Of a stretch of DNA of 64,000 nucleotides, positions 28,059 through 41,407 are shown one piece after another. The stretch's first letter is position 1. Each line of letters opens with the position of its first letter. The DNA is from Planctomycetota bacterium. GTDB taxonomy: Bacteria; Planctomycetota; GCA-002687715; DRQF01. The translations under genes were made by a program, and so were the position numbers. Under the pieces are notes generated by a model. The model saw only the letters and a list, made by a program, of their open reading frames with translations, had not been told where the DNA came from and ran no database searches. The stretch covers positions 3,669 through 67,668 of the forward strand of contig JAZGFI010000288.1 in NCBI GenBank assembly GCA_036479435.1. The letters run 5' to 3'.

Positions 28059-28544
28059 ATGAAGCGACTGCTCGCTCTGCTTTTTGTCTTCGGCGTTACT
28101 TGGGCTCTGCCTGCCGCGGATGAGTCCGCTGAGGCTGCCGTCATTGCGATGACCTTGGACGATCTCGCCCAAGGAGCCGACGCCATTTTCGCCGGACAGA
28201 TTATCTCGAAGTCCTCAAGCTGGACTGAGAACGGCGCCATGATCAACACCGAGTTCACCGTTCAGGTAACCAGCACCCTCAAAGGGCAGCTGCCGCAGCA
28301 AGTGACCGTGAAGGTTCCGGGCGGCGACCTCGACGGCATCAAGATTCGCAACGCGGAAGCGCCCACTTTTGAACTCGGCGAAAGCGTTTACGTGTTCGGC
28401 CAGCACGACACCGCTACGGACCAATACAAGACCTACGGTTGGTTCCAAGGCAAGTACACCGTGCTGAACGGCATGGTGCGTGAACTCAACGGCGTGAGCG
28501 TCGATGAATTTCACACCCAAATCCTCAACGCCGTGAATAACTAG
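28059..28544 (+). CDS. Secreted hypothetical protein, probable NTR/TIMP-like OB fold
   Basis: RBS ggag; signal peptide; LDDLAQGADAIFAGQI...TEFTVQVTSTLKG...PGG...PTFELGESVYVF pattern. Confidence 0.7.
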   Translation: MKRLLALLFVFGVTWALPAADESAEAAVIAMTLDDLAQGADAIFAGQIISKSSSWTENGAMINTEFTVQVTSTLKGQLPQQVTVKVPGGDLDGIKIRNAEAPTFELGESVYVFGQHDTATDQYKTYGWFQGKYTVLNGMVRELNGVSVDEFHTQILNAVNN

Positions 28545-28559
28545 GAAGGGGACAGAAAC

Positions 28560-29858
28560 ATGAAGATCATCAAATGGATCGCCCCGGTCACCATCTTCGC
28601 CGCCTTGGCCTGGCTCGGTCAGAACCAAGCGGACGACGCTCGCGCTTTTGCCACGCACGGTAGCTCCTGGGCCAGCCCCACCGCGCTCTACAAGGTCAAT
28701 GCCAACTTCACGGATGCCAGTGCGGGCACCGCCGAAGAACAGATCGCCGCTATCCAACGCGCGGCCTCCGAGTGGAAGAGCGCGGGACAAGTTCCCTTCG
28801 AGTTCATCTACGACGGCACCACCACCAACACGACGGTCGCCCCGAGCGACGGTGAGAACGCTGTCTTCTACAGCAACAGCGACGGCGGCGGCGCCCTTGC
28901 AACGGCGACTTGGTCCTCGTTTGCGAACGGTGATTTCTTTGGCTTTGATATCGAGTTTTACTCGATGGGCGGCGCCCTCGACTTTGTATGGGCCACGAAC
29001 CCCGTTGGTTCCCAGTTCGATATCGAGTCGGTCGCGACTCATGAGTTTGGCCACGCTCTCGGCCTCAGCCACTCGGCTTCGACCGACGCGACGATGTTCG
29101 CGTCAGTGGTGGCGGGATCGATCGCGAATCGCACCCTCGCCGCCGACGACATTGCCGGTGTGCAGTCACTTTACGGCGTGCAGGCCACTGGTGCTCCGAC
29201 CGTTAGCAATGTCGCACCCTTCTTCGGTTGGATTGGCGGCGGCGAGCGTATCCGCTTGACCGGTACTGAGCTGTCCGGAGGCGACCCTCAAGTCGTCACA
29301 ATTGACGGTGTTCAAGCCACTGGCGTCACCGTCCTCGACAACAGCACGATCGAGTTCGACGTTCCGATGGGAGTCCGCTCTGGCTTTGTGCCGGTCAGCG
29401 TGTCCCACGCTCAGGGCAACGTCGACCTCGGCGATATCTTCTTCAACACGAGCATGCGCTTCACCTCGGATATGCAGGTCGGCGGCACCGGTCAGATCGA
29501 ACTGTTCTACCCGGCCGATGCCAACCTGCCCTACCTCGCGGCACCTGCCATCAACTTTGACATAGGCATTCCGGTTAGCACCTTTGGTGACTCTGGTGAC
29601 ACCCGCGTGATTCCCTTGAACAACGACAGCCTGTTCCAAGAACAACGCCAAGGCCTCTACTCCGATACTTTCCTCGGCTTCGAAGGCTCCCTCGACGGCA
29701 ACGGCAGCGCCATGTTGCAAGTCGTTCTGCCCAACCTGCCCTTCTTGCAAGGCTACGTGGTCTGCTTCGCTTCCATGACCCTCGACATGTCCTTCACGTC
29801 GGGCGTCAAGAACATCTCGAACGCCGCCGCCGGACAGATCCAGGCCGCAACGCCCTAA
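28560..29858 (+). CDS. Secreted matrixin (M10-like metzincin) with IPT/TIG domain and C-terminal domain
   Basis: HEFGHALGLSH zinc motif, ATMF Met-turn, PTVSNVAPFFGWIGGGERIRLTGTEL IPT start; signal peptide. Confidence 0.9.
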   Translation: MKIIKWIAPVTIFAALAWLGQNQADDARAFATHGSSWASPTALYKVNANFTDASAGTAEEQIAAIQRAASEWKSAGQVPFEFIYDGTTTNTTVAPSDGENAVFYSNSDGGGALATATWSSFANGDFFGFDIEFYSMGGALDFVWATNPVGSQFDIESVATHEFGHALGLSHSASTDATMFASVVAGSIANRTLAADDIAGVQSLYGVQATGAPTVSNVAPFFGWIGGGERIRLTGTELSGGDPQVVTIDGVQATGVTVLDNSTIEFDVPMGVRSGFVPVSVSHAQGNVDLGDIFFNTSMRFTSDMQVGGTGQIELFYPADANLPYLAAPAINFDIGIPVSTFGDSGDTRVIPLNNDSLFQEQRQGLYSDTFLGFEGSLDGNGSAMLQVVLPNLPFLQGYVVCFASMTLDMSFTSGVKNISNAAAGQIQAATP

Positions 29859-29908
29859 TCGTTCGCAACGCAAAATGACGATCTCGGGTTTTGATCCTGA
29901 GCGAGCGG

Positions 29909-29948
29909 GGACCCGGCTTCCATTCTTGGAAGCCGGGTCCTTCTCTTT
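29909..29948 (+). terminator. Intrinsic terminator after matrixin
   Basis: ggacccggcttcca-ttct-tggaagccgggtcc followed by ttctcttt. Confidence 0.8.
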
Positions 29949-29965
29949 GGTCCGACCAAGTTGCC

Positions 29966-30130
29966 TGAAAGGGTAGTGACTTTGGTCTGACGCAAACGTT
30001 CAGGGTTTAGGATTTGAGGTCGGCCTTTGCTGACACATGGCTTGCGGTCGCCAAAATGGATGAAGAGTTGACTTTGGATTTGAAAGGCTAGTGGAAAACG
30101 TCTGACGCAGAAGTTGCGGGTTTGCTGGAT
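29966..30130 (+). repeat. Intergenic repeat element: two imperfect direct copies 115 bp apart
   Basis: tgaaagggtagtgactttggtctgacgcaaacgttcagggttt (from 29966) aligns without gaps to tgaaaggctagtggaaaacgtctgacgcagaagttgcgggttt (from 30081). Confidence 0.75.
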
Positions 30131-30190
30131 GTTGGTTTTCTCGCGAGCGCGAGCTTGATCGTGATTAATTTGGTCTAGCGCTACACTTAG

Positions 30191-30229
30191 ACCCGCGGTC
30201 TCCTGGTGATGGAGTCCGCGGGTTTTCTT
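30191..30229 (+). terminator. Terminator-like hairpin in the leader of the next gene
   Basis: acccgcggtctcc / ggagtccgcgggt (one mismatch) followed by tttctt. Confidence 0.5.
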
Positions 30230-30410
30230 GCCGGGTCGGGCGCAAGGAATCGCTTGTTGAGGCTGTGGGCATTCCGTACGATTTGTTTGATCCCCAATGA
30301 TAAGCGTCGCTCACGGACTCGGCATTGTTGTGCCCTGATGGAAGGGACACCACGATGACTCCGAGGGTCCGCGGACTCTCTCGGGGGTGGCGCAAGACCA
30401 GAGGTTCGAC

Positions 30411-33206
30411 ATGAATCGAAGCATCTTTGCGCTCCACCTCCGTTCCCATTTCTTGTTCACCGCGTTGGGCCTGACGCTTTTTGCGTCCGGCTTGTTGGCG
30501 CAACAGCCGCTGAACACCGAACTCCTTCAAAACGGCGGTTTCGAAACCGGTGACACTACGGGTTGGACCGCAGCGGGGGGCACGATTGGCGTGTTGCTCT
30601 ACGGCGATCCGAACACCCCCGATACCGGCGTCGCCGTGGCGATGGGCGGCGCGAGCTTTATTGCGCGCTGCTCGACGAACAGCAGCTCGGCGACTTTGAC
30701 CCAGTCTTTTGACTTGAACGGCAACGCCGTGGACGTCGATGCTGGCAACTTGGCATTGAAGCTCGCGGGATTTTTTGGCGGCAACGGCAGCGACAATGAT
30801 CGCGCGACCTTGACCGCGCGTTTTCTGGACGCATCTTCAGCGCTCATCGACACGCTTTTAATCGGCGACATCACCCGGACCAACCGCAATGCAGAGACGA
30901 CTCTGATGCGCCGTTCGGGCGACATCGTGGTACCGGCGGGGACTCGGACCCTGGAAGTAGAGATGCGCTATGCGCGTTTCTCGGGACTGGGCTTGGATTC
31001 CCTCGCGGATAACCTCAGCGCGGAACTGGTCCTCGCGGCGGCAGCGATTCCCGCGGCTATCGCCTTGAACCTCGAACTTTTAGACAACGCTGGTTTTGAA
31101 ACCGGGGCTATCATCAACCCCGCGCTCGAGTCGGCTTGGACCGTTCGGTCTGGAGCTTGGCAGTCCGCCAACTACGGCGATGCGGAACTCCCCACGGCGG
31201 CCATCGCGACCGCCATGGGCGGCGGGGCCAAGCTAGCGCTTTGCATCACGGATAGTTCCAATCCCTTCATGACCCAGACTTTTGATCTGCGCGGCAATGC
31301 CGCCGACATCGACGCCGGAAATATCTTTGTCGACCTTGAGGGCTATTTCGGAGGCTTCGTGGGGAACGCTGATACGGCGGAACTAAACGCGCTCTTCTTC
31401 GATGCGAGCGCTGCGGCTATTCCTAGCGCGGATCTTCGCATCGGACAGATCACCGCGACCAATCGCAACCAAGAGACCACGGTGATGCGCCGTTCGAGCG
31501 AAGGCCAGGTCCCGGTCGGTGCGCGGAGCATGGTGATTGAGCTGCGCTACCGGCGACTGTCTGGCTTGGGCGTCGAGGCCTTCGCGGATCGCCTCGCGGT
31601 GAAGCTGACCAATGCGCCCATACTTGCGCCTTTGGCCCTCGATACCCAACTCATCAACAATCCGGGGTTTGGGGCTATCGAACTCATCGACCCCGCGATT
31701 GAATCCAGCTGGACGGTAAGTAACGCGCTCTTCGCGGCGGTGGCCTACGGCGATGTGGATTTGCCTTCGGTGGACGTTTCGGCCGCCATCAACGGAGGGT
31801 CGAGGTTGCTGAGGTGCTCGACCGACTCCAGTGTGGCGCGCATCGGCCAAAGCCTCGATTTGCGCGGCAATGCTGTTGATGTCGACAACGCTGCGCTCTA
31901 CGTCGAGCTTGCGGGCCATTTTGGTGGCAGCGCGGCCGATCCCGATCGGGCCTCGATGCGGGTGATCTTTTTTGATGACACGGATACGGAAATCGTCGTG
32001 CCCTCGACTGATATTGGTGCCATCACCCGGACCAACCGGAACGACGAAACGACCGTGATGCGTCGCAGTGGAAACTTCGCAGTGCCAGTAGGCGCGCGCC
32101 GAATGCTCGTCGAGATCGAACTGAATCGCCTCGCCGGCCTCTCGCTGGACGCCTTGGTCGACAACGTGTTTGCCGCTTTGCGCCACGGGCCGCTTCCAGT
32201 GCCGGGAACCACCACTTTCACCGAGATCGTCGACCGCGGCGATTTCGAAGATGAGTTCATCATCAATCCGAACGAGGAAGTGAGTTGGACCGTGACCAAC
32301 GGGGGGTTCATTTCGGTTCCCTACGGTGATCCGAATCAGCCTTCGATGACGATTGGCAGCACGATCGGTGGCGGCTTGCGACTCGTGAGCGATCGGCTTG
32401 GGGGCTCAGTGGCGCGCATGGAACACCGCTATCCCGTGGCGTCAGATGCGACGAGTATCGATTTGGGACAGGCGGAGTTTTCGGCCGAGGCCTATCTTGG
32501 CGGGGAGGGCTCGCAACCTGATCACGCTAAGCTCGAAGTCCTCTACTTGGATGCGAGCGGCGCGACCCTTTTGACTGACACCATTGGGCCGGTTACCAAC
32601 ACCGACCGCGGCAACGTAACCGACATGCTCTTCAGAGAGGGTTGCTTCACAGTTCCTGCCGGCACCCGTGAGATCGTCCTGAAACTCGTCTTCACTCGGC
32701 TCTCTGGGCTTTCGAATGAAGCCCATGCCGACAATATCAGCGCCCGATTCGACATTGTTGACAATCCGGGGTCGAACGAAGACCTGCGATTCCTCACCAG
32801 CCTCGGGGGACCCCTCAACGGCGGCGCGGCGAACGACATCAAGTTTGCCCTGCCGGGCGACGTGCTCACGATGCAGATCGACTCGCCGGGCGGTACGCGT
32901 AACTTTCAACCCTTGGTGTTGGTGGGGCACTTGTTCACGACCGGCTCGCCGCCTCTTTCACCAGGTGGCTTCCCGACGGTTTGCGTCAACCCGACCACGG
33001 GATTTGTTTTCATTCTGCTGGATGGCGTGACGCCGCAGGGAGTCTTCGGACCCCCGGTCGTCTTCCCGGGCGGAACGATCGAGCAAGTTCTTATCCCCCT
33101 CGGAGGTGCCGGCCTCAGCGTCAACCTCCAGGCCTTCGCCCTGGATGGCAGCGCGGCTAACGGGTTCTTCGCGACGACGGATTGTCTGGAACTGCGTCTC
33201 CAGTAA
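30411..33206 (+). CDS. Secreted protein with four tandem ~190-aa jelly-roll (carbohydrate-binding-like) repeats and a C-terminal domain
   Basis: RBS gagg; signal peptide; repeats begin LLQNGGFETG / LLDNAGFETG / LINNPGFG / IVDRGDFE and end ADNL / ADRL / VDNV / ADNI, each with VPxGxR. Confidence 0.85.
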   Translation: MNRSIFALHLRSHFLFTALGLTLFASGLLAQQPLNTELLQNGGFETGDTTGWTAAGGTIGVLLYGDPNTPDTGVAVAMGGASFIARCSTNSSSATLTQSFDLNGNAVDVDAGNLALKLAGFFGGNGSDNDRATLTARFLDASSALIDTLLIGDITRTNRNAETTLMRRSGDIVVPAGTRTLEVEMRYARFSGLGLDSLADNLSAELVLAAAAIPAAIALNLELLDNAGFETGAIINPALESAWTVRSGAWQSANYGDAELPTAAIATAMGGGAKLALCITDSSNPFMTQTFDLRGNAADIDAGNIFVDLEGYFGGFVGNADTAELNALFFDASAAAIPSADLRIGQITATNRNQETTVMRRSSEGQVPVGARSMVIELRYRRLSGLGVEAFADRLAVKLTNAPILAPLALDTQLINNPGFGAIELIDPAIESSWTVSNALFAAVAYGDVDLPSVDVSAAINGGSRLLRCSTDSSVARIGQSLDLRGNAVDVDNAALYVELAGHFGGSAADPDRASMRVIFFDDTDTEIVVPSTDIGAITRTNRNDETTVMRRSGNFAVPVGARRMLVEIELNRLAGLSLDALVDNVFAALRHGPLPVPGTTTFTEIVDRGDFEDEFIINPNEEVSWTVTNGGFISVPYGDPNQPSMTIGSTIGGGLRLVSDRLGGSVARMEHRYPVASDATSIDLGQAEFSAEAYLGGEGSQPDHAKLEVLYLDASGATLLTDTIGPVTNTDRGNVTDMLFREGCFTVPAGTREIVLKLVFTRLSGLSNEAHADNISARFDIVDNPGSNEDLRFLTSLGGPLNGGAANDIKFALPGDVLTMQIDSPGGTRNFQPLVLVGHLFTTGSPPLSPGGFPTVCVNPTTGFVFILLDGVTPQGVFGPPVVFPGGTIEQVLIPLGGAGLSVNLQAFALDGSAANGFFATTDCLELRLQ

Positions 33207-33220
33207 GTGCCTTGCTTGAC

Positions 33221-33263
33221 GACACGGGCCCCAAGGTCTCTTCCTTGGTGCCCGTGTCTATTT
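33221..33263. terminator. Terminator between convergent genes
   Basis: gacacgggccccaagg / ccttggtgcccgtgtc (15/16 bp) followed by tattt. Confidence 0.7.
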
Positions 33264-33291
33264 CGCCGCAAAGGTGGGACGTCGAACGAAT

Positions 33292-34296
33292 CTACTCGTG
33301 TCGCCGCTCGCGCGTCATCAGCTGAGTGATGGCGCGCCGAGGGTCTTTTCGGCGGAACAAGACCGCATAGACTTGATCGGTGATGGGCATTTCGATGCCC
33401 ACCGAATGCGCCAACTTTCGGATGCTTTTGGTCGTGCCGACGCCTTCGGCGATTTTGACGGAAGTTCTTAGGATCTCGTCGAGGGTCTCACCGCGTCCGA
33501 TCCTTTCGCCAACGGCACGGTTGCGTCCGAAGGGCGAAAACGCCGTCGTGATGAGGTCACCCACGCCCGCCATTCCGTAGAAGGTTTTCTTCTTGGCGCC
33601 CAGCGCGCAGCCGAGGGTGGCGGTTTCGACGAGGCCTCGCGTGAGGAGAGCGGCCTTGGTGTTGTCGCCCAAGCCCAAGCCGTCGAGGATGCCGGCGGCG
33701 ATGGCGATAATGTTTTTCATCGCGCCGCCGAACTCGACGCCAAAGAGATCGTCATTGGCATACACCCGAAAGTTCGGCGTCGACAACTCGTCACGAAGGC
33801 GACGAGCCAAGGGTAGCGAACGCGCGGCGATGACCACCGTCGTCGCGAGGCCCCGAGCGACTTCTTCGGCGTGACTCGGTCCCGAAAGGACGGCGACTCC
33901 TCGACGTTGGCAAACCGAGCTGATGATTTGACTGGGGCGCTCGAGCGTGGCGAGCTCGATGCCCTTGGTCAACGAAATGATGGGGATGCGCGCCGGAACA
34001 AGTTCACACAACCCAGACCAAGTGCCGCGCACGTACTTGGTGGGGATGGCCGAAAAGACCATCGTTGCCTCTGCGAAGGTTTCTTCGGGATCCATGGTCG
34101 CACGCAGGGAGTCGGGAAAGTCGTAGCCTTCCAGAAACTTGTCGTTGCGCCGCCGGCGATTCATGACCGTGACTTCTTTGGCGTCGTGACCGAGCATGAC
34201 GACTTCGTGGCCTTTTGCGGCCATCAGCCCGCCCATCGCCGTACCCCAGCCGCCCGCACCAATGACGGCGATCTTTCCCTTGTTCTTAGGGCTCAA
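33292..34296 (-). CDS. gpsA: NAD(P)H-dependent glycerol-3-phosphate dehydrogenase
   Basis: IGAGGWGTA, TKGIE, SGPSHAEEV, GAMKNIIAIAAG, GDLITT, GRNR. TTG 34296 overlaps the plsY stop (TTGA). Confidence 0.95.
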   Translation of the reverse strand: MSPKNKGKIAVIGAGGWGTAMGGLMAAKGHEVVMLGHDAKEVTVMNRRRRNDKFLEGYDFPDSLRATMDPEETFAEATMVFSAIPTKYVRGTWSGLCELVPARIPIISLTKGIELATLERPSQIISSVCQRRGVAVLSGPSHAEEVARGLATTVVIAARSLPLARRLRDELSTPNFRVYANDDLFGVEFGGAMKNIIAIAAGILDGLGLGDNTKAALLTRGLVETATLGCALGAKKKTFYGMAGVGDLITTAFSPFGRNRAVGERIGRGETLDEILRTSVKIAEGVGTTKSIRKLAHSVGIEMPITDQVYAVLFRRKDPRRAITQLMTRERRHE

Positions 34297-34919
34297 GCTT
34301 TGTCTCCGATCTTCTTTTCTTTGCCACGGAAAACTCGAACGAGGTTCGCTCGGTGGGAAACTAGCACCACGACGGCTAACAGCACAAAATAAGCGATGAA
34401 CCAAGGCCGTCCCGGATCACCCCGGCTGATAAGCGTGTAGACGATCGACAAACTCATGGTGGCCAACACGCTCGAGAGCGAAACCCAACGGCAGCACAGG
34501 ATGCAGATTCCCCAAATCCCCAGGGCCGCCAGGCCCGTCATCAGGCTAATGGCTAAGACCACGCCCGATCCGGCGGCGATGCCCTTGCCGCCTCGGAATG
34601 AAAGCCAAAAAGGAAAAAGGTGCCCCAAGATAACGCCAAGGCCGACAACCAGCGCCAGGGGTAGCGTCTCCTCGGAATCAGCTTGCCACCAGATTTTGGC
34701 CGCCAGCGTCGGCAACAGACCTTTCAGCATGTCGGCGAGGTAGATCAAAAAAGCCCAACGGCGACCGAGCACCCGCCCCGCATTGGTCGCCCCCAAGTTG
34801 CCGCTACCGTGTTGCCTAAGGTCCTCACCCCGCAATACGCGTACGGCGAGATAGGACCAGGAAAAGGTCCCAATCAGATAGGCGATGGCGGCGGCGACGA
34901 GATAGGTCAAAAAGGGCAT
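34293..34919 (-). CDS. plsY: Glycerol-3-phosphate acyltransferase PlsY
   Basis: GSGNLGATNAGR, DMLKG, GHLFP..FRGGKGIA, HRANL. Confidence 0.95.
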   Translation of the reverse strand: MPFLTYLVAAAIAYLIGTFSWSYLAVRVLRGEDLRQHGSGNLGATNAGRVLGRRWAFLIYLADMLKGLLPTLAAKIWWQADSEETLPLALVVGLGVILGHLFPFWLSFRGGKGIAAGSGVVLAISLMTGLAALGIWGICILCCRWVSLSSVLATMSLSIVYTLISRGDPGRPWFIAYFVLLAVVVLVSHRANLVRVFRGKEKKIGDKA

Positions 34920-35016
34920 AGTCGTTGATAGCTCCGCGGGCGCGAAGCTTAAAGGGATCCTTGCGTGGTTCTCGCGATGAAAGACAATGGGATTCAGCCC
35001 TTGACGAGGAGGACCG

Positions 35017-35559
35017 GTGAGCGATCAGACCGAAGCCAATCTAGCCCCGACGGCCTCGCCCGAAGTGAAACCAGTCGTGGCTCCAGATCGTGGCCCTCGC
35101 CTTGTGACCGTTCTCCTCGTGCTGGTTGTGCTCAACGCCCTCGCCGTGTTCTTGGTGTGGAAGACGGAACCCCAAAGCCTTGAAGAAGATCATGTCACCG
35201 CCCAACTTTTTCTCGACGGTTTGGTTTTTGGCATCGCCGATGCCCCTGATCGCGTCGTGACCGGTTACTCGATCGCCTATGACCAACTGTCGGAGTCCGC
35301 TCGCGCAAAGTGGGACTACGCAGGATTCTCCGAGCATTTTGAGAACAAGGTCGCCGAATCGGGCTATTTGGTCTCCTGGGTTCCCCTCAGTGGGGAGCGA
35401 GGGAGCCTTGGGGCGCGTTACCTTGCTTACCGTCTTGACTTCGAGGGCCGAGACGACGAACCGCTTTCTTTTCACTGTGAGCTCAAGGTTATTCCTTTCG
35501 AGGGCCAACATCGCATTGACAGTTGGAAGTTGCGCGACCTGAAGGACGAGGAACGCTGA
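35017..35559 (+). CDS. Single-pass membrane hypothetical protein (NTF2-like fold possible)
   Basis: RBS gagga; GTG start; one TM; AYDQLSESAR motif; TGATG coupling to the next gene. Confidence 0.6.
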   Translation: MSDQTEANLAPTASPEVKPVVAPDRGPRLVTVLLVLVVLNALAVFLVWKTEPQSLEEDHVTAQLFLDGLVFGIADAPDRVVTGYSIAYDQLSESARAKWDYAGFSEHFENKVAESGYLVSWVPLSGERGSLGARYLAYRLDFEGRDDEPLSFHCELKVIPFEGQHRIDSWKLRDLKDEER

Positions 35560-37607
35560 TGGCAGTCGGGCCAGACTTCGGGGTTGATGCCGGCGGTACC
35601 TTCACCGATTTTGTGGGCGCGGATGGTCGCGGCCTCAAATTACCTTCCAACGCACTGGAGCCCGCGACCGTCTTAACCGAGGGGATTGCAGCCTTAGCTG
35701 ACGCAAGATTCTCCGGAGCGTCGCAGCTTGAGATCGTCCACGGCACGACGATCGCGACCAACGCGATCTTGACGGGGCAATTGGCAAGAGTCGGGCTGCT
35801 GATCACCGCGGGTTTTCGCGACCTTTTGCAGTTGGGAAGGCAAGCGCGGCCCGAACTCTACGATCTCAACCCTCAGCCCCCTTTCGCACCGCCTCCCCGG
35901 CGCCTTATCGAGGAAGTACCAGAACGTCTGGATGCGCAGGGTAAAGTCGTTCTGCCGCTCGACGAAGAGGCTCTTTTGCATTCCGCGACAAAGCTGAAAT
36001 CCCGTGGTGCCGAGGCCCTTGCGATCTGCTTTTTGCACTCTTGGCGCAACGCCAAGCACGAAAAGCGCGCTGGCGTCATCCTGAGTGGTCTCGGCTTGCC
36101 GGTGTCGATTTCTGCGGCCATCGCACCGGAATTTCGCGAGTTCGAGCGCTTTTCGACCGCCTACACCAACGCCTCCTTGATGCCCTTGCTTGGCCGCTAC
36201 GTCGCCGAACTCAAGAGTCGGCTGCCACCGCTTCAAAAGCAGCTCGGTCTGACCGCCGTCCCTCGAGTCTCGATTCTCGCGAGCGATGCCGGGCGCAGCA
36301 GTCTTGATGAAGCAGCTCAGCTGCCGGTGAAACTGGTGTTGTCGGGCCCCGCGGGCGGGGTGATCGGCGCTTGGCGCGGAGCGGCTACGAAAACGCGTCG
36401 AAAACTAATGACTTTGGATCTTGGCGGTACTTCTGCCGACGTCGCCTTGCTCGACGGCGGTGAGCCCATCGTGCACCGCTGTCTCATCGCCGGGCGGCCC
36501 CTGATGGTGCCCGTGGTGGATGTTCACACCGTCGGTGCCGGCGGTGGTTCGATCGCGCGCAAAGATCGCGGCGGAGCCCTTGCAGTGGGGCCGGCAAGCG
36601 CTGGCGCCGACCCGGGTCCTGCGGCCTACGGTCGCGGCGGCCCGGCAACCGTTACCGACGCCCATTTGGTATTGGGACGCATGCTCCCCGGTCACTTCCT
36701 CGGCGGCGACTTCGAACTCGATGTTGATGCGAGTTGGCGCAGTATTGAGCAACTATCCGTGAGCCTGAATCTTGAGCCCTTGGTTTGCGCGGAGGGGGTT
36801 TTGCAGGTCGCCGAAGTGACGATGGAGCGAGCCCTGCGCCGCATCTCTTTGGAACGTGGCCATGACCCGCGGCAATTCAGCCTCGTTGCTTTTGGTGGTG
36901 CCGGCGCTTTGCACGCCGCCGCTCTGGCACGGGGGTTGGGCATGACGGAAGTCGTCGTCCCGCGCGACGCGGGCATGCTTTCCGCCCGAGGTATGATGCA
37001 GGCTCGGGTGCGCCGAGAAAGCAGTCGTTCGATGCTGGGAAAGACCCTGTCATCCGTCGAGAAAAACCGCGATCGCTTAATCGCGCCACTCAGGCGGGAT
37101 CTCGATCGTGCGCTCGCGCACGAAGACGTCGCAAAGACTGACCGCGAGTACGAGGTCTTTGCCGACTTGAGATACCGCGGACAAAGCCACGAGATCACGG
37201 TGCCCTTTCGAGGCGTCGGGACCAAGAAGAAGTTTGCGGCCGCGCATCGGCAGCTTTTTGGATTCGACCAATCGGATATCTCTAGCTCTGAATCTGACTT
37301 CATCGAGTGTGTGGCCCTGCGACTTCGAGTAAGCGGACCTCAGCCGAAATCGCCGCGGTACCGCCGTCCTCCAACTCCCAAGGGCGACAAGGCCCTGCAG
37401 ACGACAATGTGCGTGTTTGATGGCAAGCGGCAGCGCACCTCGGTTTTCGATCGCCTTGCGCTGCGCTCCGGCAAAAACTACGCCGGGCCCGCCATTGTTG
37501 TCGAGTACTCCGCGACGACCGTCGTGCCTCCGGACTTCGATTTTCATCTAGAAGCTTCGCAAGCGCTGGTGCTGACGCGCCGGCCAAAAAAAAGGCGTCG
37601 GTCATGA
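35559..37607 (+). CDS. Hydantoinase/oxoprolinase subunit A
   Basis: GVDAGGTFTD, HGTTIATNA, LSGPAGG, DLGGTSAD, GAGGGS, SAGADPGP, DLRYRGQSHE. Confidence 0.93.
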   Translation: MAVGPDFGVDAGGTFTDFVGADGRGLKLPSNALEPATVLTEGIAALADARFSGASQLEIVHGTTIATNAILTGQLARVGLLITAGFRDLLQLGRQARPELYDLNPQPPFAPPPRRLIEEVPERLDAQGKVVLPLDEEALLHSATKLKSRGAEALAICFLHSWRNAKHEKRAGVILSGLGLPVSISAAIAPEFREFERFSTAYTNASLMPLLGRYVAELKSRLPPLQKQLGLTAVPRVSILASDAGRSSLDEAAQLPVKLVLSGPAGGVIGAWRGAATKTRRKLMTLDLGGTSADVALLDGGEPIVHRCLIAGRPLMVPVVDVHTVGAGGGSIARKDRGGALAVGPASAGADPGPAAYGRGGPATVTDAHLVLGRMLPGHFLGGDFELDVDASWRSIEQLSVSLNLEPLVCAEGVLQVAEVTMERALRRISLERGHDPRQFSLVAFGGAGALHAAALARGLGMTEVVVPRDAGMLSARGMMQARVRRESSRSMLGKTLSSVEKNRDRLIAPLRRDLDRALAHEDVAKTDREYEVFADLRYRGQSHEITVPFRGVGTKKKFAAAHRQLFGFDQSDISSSESDFIECVALRLRVSGPQPKSPRYRRPPTPKGDKALQTTMCVFDGKRQRTSVFDRLALRSGKNYAGPAIVVEYSATTVVPPDFDFHLEASQALVLTRRPKKRRRS

Positions 37608-39193
37608 AAACTTCTCGCCGCCAACAAGTGGTGGTCAACGCCATCGAGGTCGAGATCTTTCGCCAGCTGTTCGAGTCAATTGCGGACGAGATGGGGGTGG
37701 TGTTGCAACGCACCGCCTTCTCGCCCAACATCAAAGAGCGACTCGATTTTTCGTGCGCGCTTGCGGACGCCGAGGGCAGCATGCTGGCGCAGGCGGCTCA
37801 CATTCCGGTGCACCTCGGGTCCTGTCATCTCACGACGAAAGAGGTCTTTGCGGCTTGCACCTTGCAGCCCGGCGACGTCGTGGTCCTGAATGATCCATTT
37901 CGTGGCGGCACCCACCTCCCCGATATCACGATGGTGGCGCCGGTTTTCGCCCCCGACGGCAAGCGACTTTGCTTCGGCGTCGTGGCGCGCGCCCATCACG
38001 CCGATGTCGGTGGCGGCGTTCCGGGCTCTATGGGCAACTTCGACGAGATCTACAAAGAAGGCCTGATCATCCCTCCTGTGAAGCTCGTGGCGGCGGGCTC
38101 AAAAGTCGATGATGTCGAGGCCTTGGTGCTAGCTAACGTCAGGACACCCGATGAACGTCGCGGCGATTTGGCCGCACAGATCGCATCGGTTCAGCGGGGC
38201 GTCGAGCGCATAGAGGCGCTGATGTCGGACTATGGTATCGAGGTTCTTGCGGCCGCGGGGAAAGCCCTCATGGCCCGCTCGGCGCGTGCCCTCGGCGAAG
38301 TCTTGAAAGAGATTCCAGACGGTCTTTATCGCGCATCCGATCGCCTGGATGGCGAAGGAAGCGCCAAGATCGCGGTCCAGCTTGTGGTTAAGGGCTCTAA
38401 GCTGACTGTCGATTTCAAGGGCAGCTCACCCTCCGTCGCCGAGGCCCTCAACGCGCACGAGGCGATCACGCTTTCGTGTTTGTTTTACGCTCTCCGCTGC
38501 CTCGCGGATGAATCCATTCCGACGAATTCGGGGCTCTTGGCGCCGGTCCAGTTGCTGGTGCCGAAGGGGAGCATTGTGGGTGCGGTTCATCCGGCGGCGG
38601 TGGCAGGTGGCAACGTCGAGACCTCCCAACGCATCGTTGACGTCATCTTTCGCGCGCTCGCCGAGGCTTGTCCGGGCCTGATACCGGCCGACTCGCAGGG
38701 CACGATGAACAATCTCTCTTTTGGCGGCAAAGATCGGTCGGGCCGTGTTTTCACTTACTTTGAAACCATTGCGGGGGGGCTGGGCGCGGGCAAGCATCAC
38801 GACGGGGCGTCCGGTATGCACTCGCACATGACCAACACCCTCAATACTCCCATCGAGGCCCTCGAAGTCGCGTTGCCCTTGCGGGTTCGCGCCTATCACT
38901 TGCGCCGCAACAGCGGGGGATCTGGGCGGCATCCCGGTGGCGATGGGGTCGTCCGTGAGTTCGAGGCGCTCGACTCCTTGGAAGTTTCCTTGCTAACCAC
39001 GCGTCGCCTGAGTGCGCCGTCGGGGCGAGCTGGCGGCGGAGATGCGAAGCCGGGGTGTGATCATCTCATCGATGCCTCAGGCCGCCGTCGCAAGTTGAAT
39101 CCGAAATCTCAGTTCGTCATGAAGCCGGGGGAGACTCTGCGAATCGAGACTCCCGGCGGCGGTGGCTACGGCAAGCGAGTTTCGCGCGGGTGA
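37604..39193 (+). CDS. Hydantoinase B/oxoprolinase subunit
   Basis: [61 protein letters not shown]. Confidence 0.93.
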
Positions 39194-39475
39194 AACCCCG
39201 GTGAGGAGCCGCGACGGCGTCAGGTCGCCGGCTCTACCACCGAATGAAAATGATGTCGGAAAAAACTTCCGACCTAAGTCCTGTCTCAGAAAGAGTCGGG
39301 CTTTTTCAGCATATTTCAACTCCCGTCCGGCGGCCTTCCTGCGTCGATATATCCCTTTGCGAATGCCCCCCAGGCAAGAGGCGTGCAACGACATGCTCAG
39401 TGATGAGATTCCATTACTGAGTTCTGCCGCCGGTGCGAGGTCAATGTGATTTCGTAACGGCAGATTGGGGGCTAT

Positions 39476-41407
39476 ATGAGTACTGTGAACGCGAAAAGGA
39501 ACTTGTTCTTTTCAATCATTCTCTTGGTGGGAGTACTGCCGGGGATTGTACGCAGCCAAATTGCTCTTGAGATTGCGACCGAGTTTAGCCTCGGACAAAG
39601 TTCCGAGGGAGCCCGGAGTGAGCCGGTCGTGCTGGGCGACGATGCCTTCGCGATTCTGTGCCCCTCCTTTGACTCGGGTAACCTCGGCGCCCCCTTCTGC
39701 AACCTTATCGTGATGCGCCGCCTTCACGGCGTTCCCCTGTACAAGGCCATCGATTACCTCACCTCGGCGCCCACGGCCGACGATGTTTGGGTGAATCCCA
39801 TCGGTCTCAATTCGACGTCGATCCTGATTCCCGGCCCCGGTGCCGATGGTTTCTATGCCACGAGCGACGACGTTCTGTCAGTTTTCCGAGGCTTGGATTT
39901 CCCCTTGCTTGCCGTGCAAGAGGACTTCCTTCTCGGCATCGCTGGTCCGCGCCGGAATTCCGAAATTGTCTGCGTCGATGCCAACACGGTGATGTGGGTG
40001 GATTATGGCCCCGACGGCCTCGCCAACACCGGTGAGGAGTTTGTGAGGATCATCCGCGATCTCCAAGGTTCCCCTTACGCCGATAGCATTCCGCTGAGCT
40101 GGGGAGCTTCCGGTCGACTCGTCGAGATGGAACCAGGCTACGCCGCCGCCGTCTTGTCGGGCCCCGATGGCGTGTTCGACTCTCTAGATGACACGATGGA
40201 CATCTTGCATTTGGACTCGGTCGGGGGCACCGTCAACGTCATTCATCGCAAGTTTGTGGAGAAGCCCAGCACGCCTCTGCTCGGAGTTCGCTGGCCGATA
40301 CACATTGGCAACAACAAACTCATTTTCCCGAACCTCGGTCGAGATGGACGCTTTGGGTCATCGGATGATCAGCTCGTGTTTCTCGACACTCTCGACTACA
40401 CGAAGACCCGCGGCATCCAAATGGGAAACCACCACCCTTGGTCGACGATCTTTGGGCCCGCCAACGTGGATGTCGATGAGAACGGTACCATCATCATGAC
40501 CGCTGGCGGTTTTGACAACCTCCGTGGTACGCCCAATGACGAAATCATCTTTATCAGCTCACCGTTCATTGGCGCCGCCAACGTCGATGCCGTTGCCTTG
40601 ACCGTCGCCATTCACTCGAATTCGTTGTTCGAACCAACGAAGTCCGTGACCCTTTCTTCTGGCATCACCATGATCCCTTTCCGTGACACGACTACAGTTG
40701 GGTTCGTGAGTGCGGGGGTCATCATCATCAAGCCTGGTGCCTCGGGGCAACGTACGGCGACTCTCCACGACATGGGCGAAACTGTTGACAACATCGAAGC
40801 GCTTGGCGCCACGAGTGCAGCTGTCTTCACGTCCAGTGGAGCTGTATTTCATCTCTCGCACCTAGACCAGGCCTCTTACGAGACTCAGCATATTGCGGGA
40901 ATTGTCGCCGAAGATCCGAAGTTTGTGACCGTTGCCAGTAAGTCGGTCATGATCTCGACGGCCCCAGGCGTCATTGTCAACGGCTTCTACAACGACCGCC
41001 TGCAGCTTTGGCGTTTGCGCGCGACGCTTCCCTATGGCGAGCCCACGGCGAACGATCAAGGTTACGAGATGCGCCTGCGCGGCGACGGAACTTTGCCCAA
41101 GATCGACGGCCCCTTGTTCTGGATCACCCTGGAAAGTGCCCCTCCGTCTTCCTTCGGATACCTGTTGGTAGCGCCTTCGCGCGGCAGCTACATGCCGGCC
41201 TCTGACGCCGAGATTCTCATCAACACCGAATCGATGTTGACGCCAATCGCCTGGTCGACCGACCAAAACGGCAACAGCTCTTTCCCGGTCATTCCCCTTG
41301 GTGTTCCGGAACTTGCGGGCATCGCCTTCAACGTCCAATTCCTAATCGTCAACACCCAAAACCCACGCCAGTTCGAACTGTCCAACGGCCTGACGATGGT
41401 CTTTTAA
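39476..41407 (+). CDS. Secreted repeat protein with GxDG-x(4-5)-DD loops and a C-terminal domain
   Basis: Signal peptide; GADGFYATSDD, GPDGLANTGEE, GPDGVFDSLDD, GRDGRFGSSDD, GFDNLRGTPND about 55 aa apart. Confidence 0.75.
   Translation: MSTVNAKRNLFFSIILLVGVLPGIVRSQIALEIATEFSLGQSSEGARSEPVVLGDDAFAILCPSFDSGNLGAPFCNLIVMRRLHGVPLYKAIDYLTSAPTADDVWVNPIGLNSTSILIPGPGADGFYATSDDVLSVFRGLDFPLLAVQEDFLLGIAGPRRNSEIVCVDANTVMWVDYGPDGLANTGEEFVRIIRDLQGSPYADSIPLSWGASGRLVEMEPGYAAAVLSGPDGVFDSLDDTMDILHLDSVGGTVNVIHRKFVEKPSTPLLGVRWPIHIGNNKLIFPNLGRDGRFGSSDDQLVFLDTLDYTKTRGIQMGNHHPWSTIFGPANVDVDENGTIIMTAGGFDNLRGTPNDEIIFISSPFIGAANVDAVALTVAIHSNSLFEPTKSVTLSSGITMIPFRDTTTVGFVSAGVIIIKPGASGQRTATLHDMGETVDNIEALGATSAAVFTSSGAVFHLSHLDQASYETQHIAGIVAEDPKFVTVASKSVMISTAPGVIVNGFYNDRLQLWRLRATLPYGEPTANDQGYEMRLRGDGTLPKIDGPLFWITLESAPPSSFGYLLVAPSRGSYMPASDAEILINTESMLTPIAWSTDQNGNSSFPVIPLGVPELAGIAFNVQFLIVNTQNPRQFELSNGLTMVF

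Follow-up and report, generated by a model that had tools for sequence, protein, structure and literature searches.

In a 64,000-nucleotide stretch of DNA from a member of the Planctomycetota (GenBank assembly GCA_036479435.1, contig JAZGFI010000288.1, positions 3,669 to 67,668 of the forward strand), hereafter called the window, three genes that we name A, B, and C encode secreted proteins whose C-terminal parts, or tails, are the subject of this study. The three tails probably belong to one superfamily of immunoglobulin (Ig)-like β-sandwich domains of 120–140 residues, of which the B tail is the remoter member. The superfamily is made up of three sequence subtypes, A, C, and a more distant B that has one extra N-terminal strand. 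Its members recur in the genome from which the window comes and in other Planctomycetota, as the last domain of most of the proteins that carry them. We tentatively read the tail, with a confidence that stays short of even, as a tag that would direct its carriers across the outer membrane or fix them at the cell surface. How planctomycetes place proteins on or beyond the outer membrane is largely unknown.

Relationship between the three tails

An initial annotation of the window had described three open reading frames (ORFs) encoding signal-peptide proteins that end alike, and had quoted a tail of about 50 residues for each. The three ORFs were present as described, and the quoted tails were their true C-termini. 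The likeness itself was confirmed, with a qualification. At the level of profiles it was recovered, with A and C in one family, whereas pairwise comparison by BLASTP showed no significant tail-to-tail match among the three proteins and B proved to be only a remote relative. The sole tail-to-tail match in BLASTP, between residues 902–915 of B and residues 605–621 of C, had an E-value of 11. The extent of the shared region had been set too short: the motif quoted earlier is the conserved last third of a common unit of 120–140 residues.

The relationship between the C and A tails was apparent in several designs of profile comparison with hhalign. The C-type profile matched the A-type profile at 96.8% (E 2.2e-10, 104 columns), and still did so at 95.5% (E 1.3e-8) after removal of the C-type sequences that scored >20 bits on the A profile. 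Protein C together with a single ortholog matched the A-type profile at 92.8% (E 4e-7), and protein C alone at 55% (P 1.2e-4). Control comparisons, made with 30 block-shuffled alignments and a reversed one, scored at most 24, as against 60 for the real pair. On these profiles the A and C tails are clearly homologous and form one family.

The B tail lies further away. The A-type and B-type profiles built within this genome matched at 24% (E 8e-4), and deeper profiles of the two raised this to 60.5% (P 8.4e-5), with 109 colinear columns and a score of 30.5. None of 61 controls reached that score, the maximum being 20.7 for 60 block-shuffled alignments and 11.3 for the reversed one. The C-type and B-type profiles matched at about 60% across the last 38–39 columns, and here again the real score was reached by none of 31 controls. 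We consider it quite likely that the B tail is a divergent branch of the A/C superfamily, with some 24 extra residues at its N-terminal side.

An iterated search linked the three subtypes in another way. Seeded with the C-type profile, it was run against this genome (299 contigs totaling 5.47 Mb, 92% complete), in which 18,734 crude ORFs had been called with a minimum length of 80 amino acids (aa), and it converged on 48 ORFs. A strong A-type paralog was admitted at E 6e-4, protein A was reached at E 3.5e-8 before its own inclusion, and strong B-type members were first admitted at E 2.7e-4 to 7.9e-4. The A- and B-type members aligned in the same C-terminal register.

Predicted fold of the A and B tails

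The initial annotation had proposed to superpose predicted structures of the tails, and models of A and B agreed. AlphaFold models were built from the family alignments. The B-tail model contained nine strands (pLDDT 89.7), and the A-tail model was a β-sandwich of seven to eight strands with two short helices (pLDDT 94.7). When the DSSP strings were mapped by hand along the A-versus-B profile alignment, the A strands matched strands 2–9 of B in order. Both tails are predicted, by confident models, to adopt an Ig-like two-sheet sandwich of 7–9 strands, and the two models are congruent.

Searches with these models returned only generic Ig-like sandwiches, at a level that, according to the tool's own note, may reflect no more than a common arrangement of strands: the best Foldseek matches were RhoGDI for the B model (E 7e-4, TM 0.40) and VISTA and PapD-type chaperones for the A model (E 5e-4, TM 0.42–0.44), and the best VIA scores, Z 8.2 for B and 7.4 for A, fell on macroglobulin-type domains. 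With VIA, Ig-like matches at Z ≥5 numbered in the hundreds, many of them common to both models, including CD109, C3, and C4. A sequence search of the PDB gave no match below E 0.02.

In the ESM Atlas, the neighbors of the A and B tails were unnamed clusters of Planctomycetota, which overlapped between the two tails and none of which had a Pfam family. One cluster of 63 members and 118 aa was in both neighbor lists. The Atlas model of the A tail matched C-terminal parts of planctomycetal proteins at TM 0.75–0.83. The proteins so matched carry M14 peptidase, BNR, arylsulfotransferase, FGE-sulfatase, DUF1028, or Kelch domains, and no Pfam 38.1 family covers the aligned part.

A terminal, single-copy domain with many paralogs

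It had been proposed that profiles of the tails should find many matches, nearly all of them C-terminal and on signal-peptide proteins with diverse cargo, and the searches bore this out. With the B tail, the first search of the genome already found more than 20 proteins, and iteration converged on 27 paralogs, in nearly all of which the match of about 140 residues stops 3–8 residues before the stop codon. The A tail defined a second set of about 10 proteins on convergence; with a deeper A-type profile, seven strong members ended 0–4 residues before the stop. The C tail used alone as a query retrieved no paralog in this genome, and a profile of its relatives from other genomes found 33 further ORFs. 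The union of all profiles amounted to 79 ORFs among about 4600 non-overlapping ones. The 66–79 carriers represent about 1.5% of the ORFs, and each carries the domain once. At E ≤1e-3, the match ended at most 10 residues from the stop in 54 of 66 ORFs and 11–45 residues from it in 6 more, mostly alignments that stopped early. At E ≤1e-10, 35 of 37 ended within 10 residues, and none was internal.

The same position was found outside this genome. For type B, a search of 1.84 billion proteins, with representatives taken at 50% identity, gave 1100 cluster representatives at E ≤1e-3, of which 873 also passed E ≤1e-10. Among the best 150 of the 1100, the match ended 0–9 residues from the protein end in every case (the profile envelope fell 2–6 residues short of the end in 149 of them and 12 residues short in the other), and no protein had two copies. 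Type A was C-terminal in all 30 best matches, one from each of 30 other genomes. Type C was C-terminal in 18 of 19 loci of other genomes, the remaining copy lying 362 residues from the end. The alignment of A and C together, searched against longer proteins by a method limited by its word index, gave seven matches.

Conserved positions stood out in the same 150 type-B domains. The domain opens with the motif P-G-[ST]-x-E-D-[LF] (window positions 32766–32810 in gene B, for example), in which the Gly and the Asp (D6) were each present in 148 sequences. Further on, two polar residues were near invariant, Q117 (150/150) and N127 (145/150). Such conservation of polar positions may point to a site for metal binding, recognition, or processing.

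Two further observations concern type-B genes. On contig C131 (7670–13009), three tandem paralogous genes encode FG-GAP propeller proteins of 574, 584, and 577 aa, each terminated by a type-B domain, and the trio appears to reflect a local and recent multiplication of adhesin-like proteins that bear the tag. Other proteins have no cargo at all, a signal-peptide-like start being followed by the type-B domain only, as in a 163-aa ORF on contig C46 (1953–2444). Several further matches without cargo measure 146–190 aa; P0016, P0083, P0090, and P0147 of the worldwide set fall in the range of 146–170 aa. At 146 aa, P0090 has no room for a signal peptide and may therefore be a fragment.

Cargo and export signals of the carriers

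The domains that precede the tail were highly varied. FG-GAP propellers were the commonest cargo: of the proteins of this genome that were scanned, 6 of 26 with a type-B tail and no fewer than 17 of 38 with a type-C tail had them. Pfam matches to peptidases and hydrolases comprised matrixin (M10), S8 subtilase, GDSL lipase, endonuclease/exonuclease/phosphatase, and PETase-like hydrolase, and redox cargo comprised GSDH (glucose/sorbosone dehydrogenase) and CCP_MauG (di-haem cytochrome c peroxidase). Right-handed β-helix, PPC, LTD (lamin-tail), Kelch, NIDO, and TSP_C (thrombospondin C-terminal region) domains were also found, as were nine SdrD_B repeats, and many carriers had no family at all. 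A given cargo family could be joined to different subtypes, FG-GAP being found with A, B, and C, S8 with A and a weak B, and SdrD_B with B and C. This indicates that the tail behaves as a mobile module.

Most members had N-termini that read as signal-peptide-like. Together with the cargo, this shows the carriers, as far as sequence tells, to be Sec-type exported proteins whose other domains are mutually unrelated.

Many carrier N-termini ended in a small-x-small motif followed by Gln (…ASAQ, …LLAQQ, …VRSQ), for example at window positions 30411–30530 (B) and 39476–39570 (C). With a crude regular expression, the motif was present in 91 of the 150 worldwide type-B proteins (P0001–P0150) and in 30 of 66 carriers of this genome, against a background of 570 among 4285 ORFs of at least 200 aa that include cytoplasmic and spurious ones. 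Gln at position +1 is described as specific to Bacteroidetes (PMC5837995). The glutaminyl cyclase family PF05096 was not found in this genome.

Distribution across the phylum

We sampled 201 genomes of Planctomycetota, scoring no more than about 20 candidates per genome, so that copy numbers are lower bounds. Type A was present in 38 genomes, type B in 28, and relatives of type C in 23, the B and C sets being nested inside the A set. In the order to which the window belongs, 10 of 10 genomes had both A and B. Candidate counts at first look ranged from 33 to 331 per genome. The evidence gathered, which consists of Atlas taxa and the source names of a few named records, places the superfamily in Planctomycetota only. 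Within the phylum, the domain appears to have expanded in particular lineages, a pattern typical of sorting systems.

The largest numbers were seen in one family of the sample (f36), three genomes of which (G033, G063, and G088) each had 228–331 first-look type-A candidates, and in each of the three all 21 candidates scored were matches. Judged by such candidates, this expansion far exceeds that in the genome of the window.

A proposed destination tag and its alternatives

By analogy with known sorting domains, we favor, with slightly less than even confidence, the reading that the tail is a cargo-independent destination tag for passage over the outer membrane or for fixation at the surface. 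The carrier would be exported by Sec, after which the C-terminal sandwich would fold in the periplasm. A component of the envelope would then recognize the folded sandwich and either pass the protein over the outer membrane or fix it at the cell surface. The initial annotation had likewise proposed an export or anchoring tag. The in silico results were favorable to that proposal, although no known machinery and no recurrent neighbor was found to accompany it. [quoted passage not shown]

Several observations weigh against the tag. The unity of the superfamily is itself weaker on the B side: protein B reached only E 0.5 in the C-seeded iteration, type-B profiles (whole-domain, broad, or restricted to the last 45 residues) never retrieved A or C, even with filters off, and profile–profile scores make the kinship of B with A and C no more than probable, at about 60%. 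Six of the 66 copies in this genome were internal or near the N-terminus, all of them weak or partial (Table 1). One of the six precedes Kelch repeats and another precedes TIG and P_proprotein domains; the six may be genuine internal copies, products of fusion, or artifacts of the assembly. The nesting of the B and C genome sets inside the A set may in part arise because homologous subtypes are picked up by one another's profiles. FG-GAP propeller proteins account for at least 23 carriers, and in these an Ig-like domain behind the propeller could be purely structural; the signature of a terminal, single-copy domain with diverse cargo and many paralogs describes dockerins equally well. Lastly, no convincing machinery partner emerged when the genes lying at most 4 kb from the 66 tagged genes were clustered (345 neighbors). 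The only recurrent neighbors were seven Ser/Thr kinases, four ABC ATPases, and five FG-GAP proteins, of which at least two are tagged proteins that the earlier profiles had missed. By our estimate, the kinases look like a chance finding in a kinase-rich phylum.

The alternative that fares best, though we still judge it rather unlikely, is a passive module for docking or binding. The carriers would leave by a general route, and the domain would then bind a surface partner, a glycan of the envelope or matrix, or a substrate, and so keep enzymes and adhesins near the cell. The dockerin-like signature fits this reading as well as it fits a tag, and so do the want of machinery near the tagged genes and the stand-alone proteins made of a signal peptide and the domain, such as the 163-aa ORF on contig C46. 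Ig-like sandwiches are, besides, common binding folds. However, the tails matched no known carbohydrate-binding or docking family in sequence and no specific fold, and binding modules often repeat in tandem, whereas the best 150 type-B proteins contained no tandem copies. Nor was a scaffold bearing several receptor modules found, although no search was aimed at one.

We find it improbable that the domain is a structural spacer, that is, an Ig-like stalk that first accompanied FG-GAP propellers, in the way that thigh and calf domains come after the integrin propeller, and that later spread by domain shuffling to provide stability or reach with no addressing role. The prevalence of FG-GAP cargo, the existence of a few internal copies, and the fold matches to spacer-type Ig domains (alpha-2-macroglobulin, complement, intimin, and filamin, Z 6.5–8.2) agree with this idea. 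Yet it leaves unexplained why the domain comes last in >90% of carriers, 0–5 residues from the stop, and why it is also found on compact enzymes (lipase, peptidases, and peroxidases) that need no stalk. The near invariance of Q117, N127, and D6 in type B also counts against a spacer, as it suggests a conserved site and not a core alone. A chance likeness of strand-rich, Gly/Pro-rich C-termini that share no domain would suit the null BLASTP result, the failure of type-B profiles to find A and C, and the modest probability of the link to B, but it is very hard to reconcile with the significance of A versus C in several designs, with controls that never reached the real score (0/61 for A–B and 0/31 for C–B), with the admission of strong B-type members in the same C-terminal register, and with the congruence of the A and B models.

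If the destination tag is genuine, it offers a ready list of surface and secreted proteins for lineages represented only by metagenome-assembled genomes, and a handle on the recognizing machinery through phylogenetic profiling. If it is a true signal for export or attachment, dozens to hundreds of substrates per genome become readable from sequence. Even if it is a docking module only, its superfamily is large, is still uncurated, and merits a model in the databases, and such a model would annotate the C-termini of many proteins whose tail domain is at present unannotated.

The three genes and their products

Coordinates of the genes, of their tails, and of the internal copies are collected in Table 1. 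Each of the three proteins begins with a hydrophobic, signal-peptide-like stretch, as read from sequence. In protein A, Pfam assigned Peptidase_M10 to residues 44–206 (E 4.7e-18) and an IPT/TIG domain to residues 213–285 (E 1.3e-7). The A-type profile matched the protein with E 1.4e-33 over residues 303–428, that is, 4 aa short of the stop.

Protein B probably starts at the Met at residue 9 of its ORF, the position at which its public-database records begin. Its four repeats are 31–48% identical in pairs and share a motif spaced at residues 50, 235, 426, and 618. The start of repeat 1 gave only sub-threshold matches, to CBM_4_9 and NTTRR-F1 (Pfam/NCBIfam). The in-genome type-B profile covered residues 794–935 (E 3.2e-46). 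Protein C had no Pfam or NCBIfam family; its G-x-D-G motifs lie at residues 122, 178, 229, and 288, and the C-type profile covered residues 524–643, up to the last one.

Directly upstream of gene A, on the same strand (28059–28544, +), lies an ORF of 161 aa whose start resembles a signal peptide and which matches no family in Pfam or NCBIfam. Its product could be a partner or an inhibitor of protease A.

Table 1. Positions of genes A, B, and C and their domains (window coordinates) and of internal copies of the tail elsewhere in the genome (contig and contig coordinates)
Feature	Position	Strand	Residues	Description
Gene A	28560–29858	+		432-aa ORF; secreted matrixin-like metalloprotease with type-A tail
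Type-A C-terminal domain of A	29466–29855	+	303–432	
Gene B	30387–33206	+		939-aa ORF; secreted; four repeats of about 185 aa, then type-B tail
Tandem cargo repeats of B	30501–32762	+	39–223, 224–414, 415–606, 607–792	Four repeats
Type-B C-terminal domain of B	32766–33203	+	794–939	
Gene C	39476–41407	+		643-aa ORF; secreted; G-x-D-G motifs, type-C tail
Type-C C-terminal domain of C	41045–41404	+	524–643	
Internal or N-terminal-ish copy	C84: 13946–15559			Weak or partial
Internal or N-terminal-ish copy	C194: 3133–5448			Weak or partial
Internal or N-terminal-ish copy	C15: 800–1951			Weak or partial
Internal or N-terminal-ish copy	C10: 15073–16167			Weak or partial
Internal or N-terminal-ish copy	C199: 965–2221			Weak or partial
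Internal or N-terminal-ish copy	C299: 18216–20564			Weak or partial

Comparison with known families and sorting systems

The tails of A, B, and C gave no match at E ≤1 in Pfam-A (2025 copy) or NCBIfam (release 20), and no Pfam match was reported for the tails of 73 paralogs. The known ligand-binding families, which the initial annotation had singled out as a check, were not among the matches. The records encountered that bear the tail had no name other than "hypothetical protein" or one taken from the cargo domain. In the titles and opening lines of abstracts that made up the literature searched, no such planctomycetal C-terminal domain was found; passages of PMC11685898 deal with a different, small subdomain. 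As judged by these sequence comparisons, the domain family appears new to the curated libraries tested, while its kind, terminal tag domains on secreted proteins, is already known.

A PEP-CTERM-type signal was rejected, as were LPXTG, GlyGly-CTERM, and MYXO-CTERM, because the tails do not end in the required succession of motif, helix, and basic tail. Neither a hydrophobic helix nor a basic tail was present among the final 25 residues in A, B, C, or the paralogs, as the initial annotation had already noted for the three proteins, and the A and B tails were modeled as β-strands to the end. The exosortase family PF09721 had no match in the genome (the control matched in one genome); sortase, rhombosortase, and myxosortase were not searched.

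Some known domains resemble the tail in fold or in position. The best fold matches were macroglobulin domains of the alpha-2-macroglobulin/complement family and Ig domains of intimin and invasin (CD109, alpha-2-macroglobulin, C3, and C4; VIA Z 6.8–8.2 over 84–107 aligned residues), which differ from the tail in having only 3–16% sequence identity and no sequence relation to it. The PPC domain (PF04151) and the proprotein convertase P-domain are C-terminal β-sandwiches that secreted peptidases carry, and a supporting role in secretion or folding is ascribed to them. Unlike the planctomycetal tail, they are restricted to peptidases. PPC and P_proprotein were found as separate domains in two tail-carrying proteins, which makes the tail a distinct module.

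Dockerins of cellulosomal enzymes show the same genomic signature: they are mostly C-terminal and single-copy, they are attached to many secreted enzymes that are otherwise unrelated, a genome has tens to hundreds of them, and they have no role in export. They are, however, short Ca-binding helical repeats, whereas the tail is predicted to be an all-β sandwich, for which no cohesin-like partner was identified. A dockerin was rejected by sequence, as PF00404 gave no match and the models were all-β apart from the two short helices of type A.

The T9SS CTD comes closest in logic. The initial annotation had held that the tails were not T9SS CTDs, and we likewise rejected a T9SS CTD: no tail matched a T9SS CTD model, and the genome yielded no SprA, PorV, or GldM. 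The Por_Secre_tail models (TIGR04183/PF18962) matched neither A, B, nor C at E ≤1 and none of 35 paralogs at E ≤0.01. TIGR04183 matched nothing genome-wide, but also nothing in 14 control genomes. SprA, PorV, and GldM/PorM (TIGR04189, NF033710, and TIGR03517) had no match in this 92%-complete genome. In the controls, only PorV was matched, in Bacteroides thetaiotaomicron and below the cut-off; since three of the four T9SS searches found nothing in control genomes, those negatives, including the ones for SprA and GldM, are weaker. No T9SS CTD structure was among the fold matches listed for the A or B model. To our knowledge, Planctomycetota is a phylum that lacks T9SS.

The T9SS CTD (type A, Por_Secre_tail) has a length of about 70–100 residues. 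It occurs once per protein and dozens of times per genome, is restricted to certain lineages, and is carried by peptidases, adhesins, and hydrolases. Its substrates have the tag removed by the sortase-like PorU and are attached to a surface glycolipid. The planctomycetal domain differs from it in being 120–140 residues long, in having other motifs, and in showing no sequence match. The likeness lies in the arrangement, an Ig-like sandwich found at the extreme C-terminus of signal-peptide proteins with varied cargo. The destination tag that we favor would follow the same logic as the T9SS CTD, but with a domain unrelated to it in sequence.

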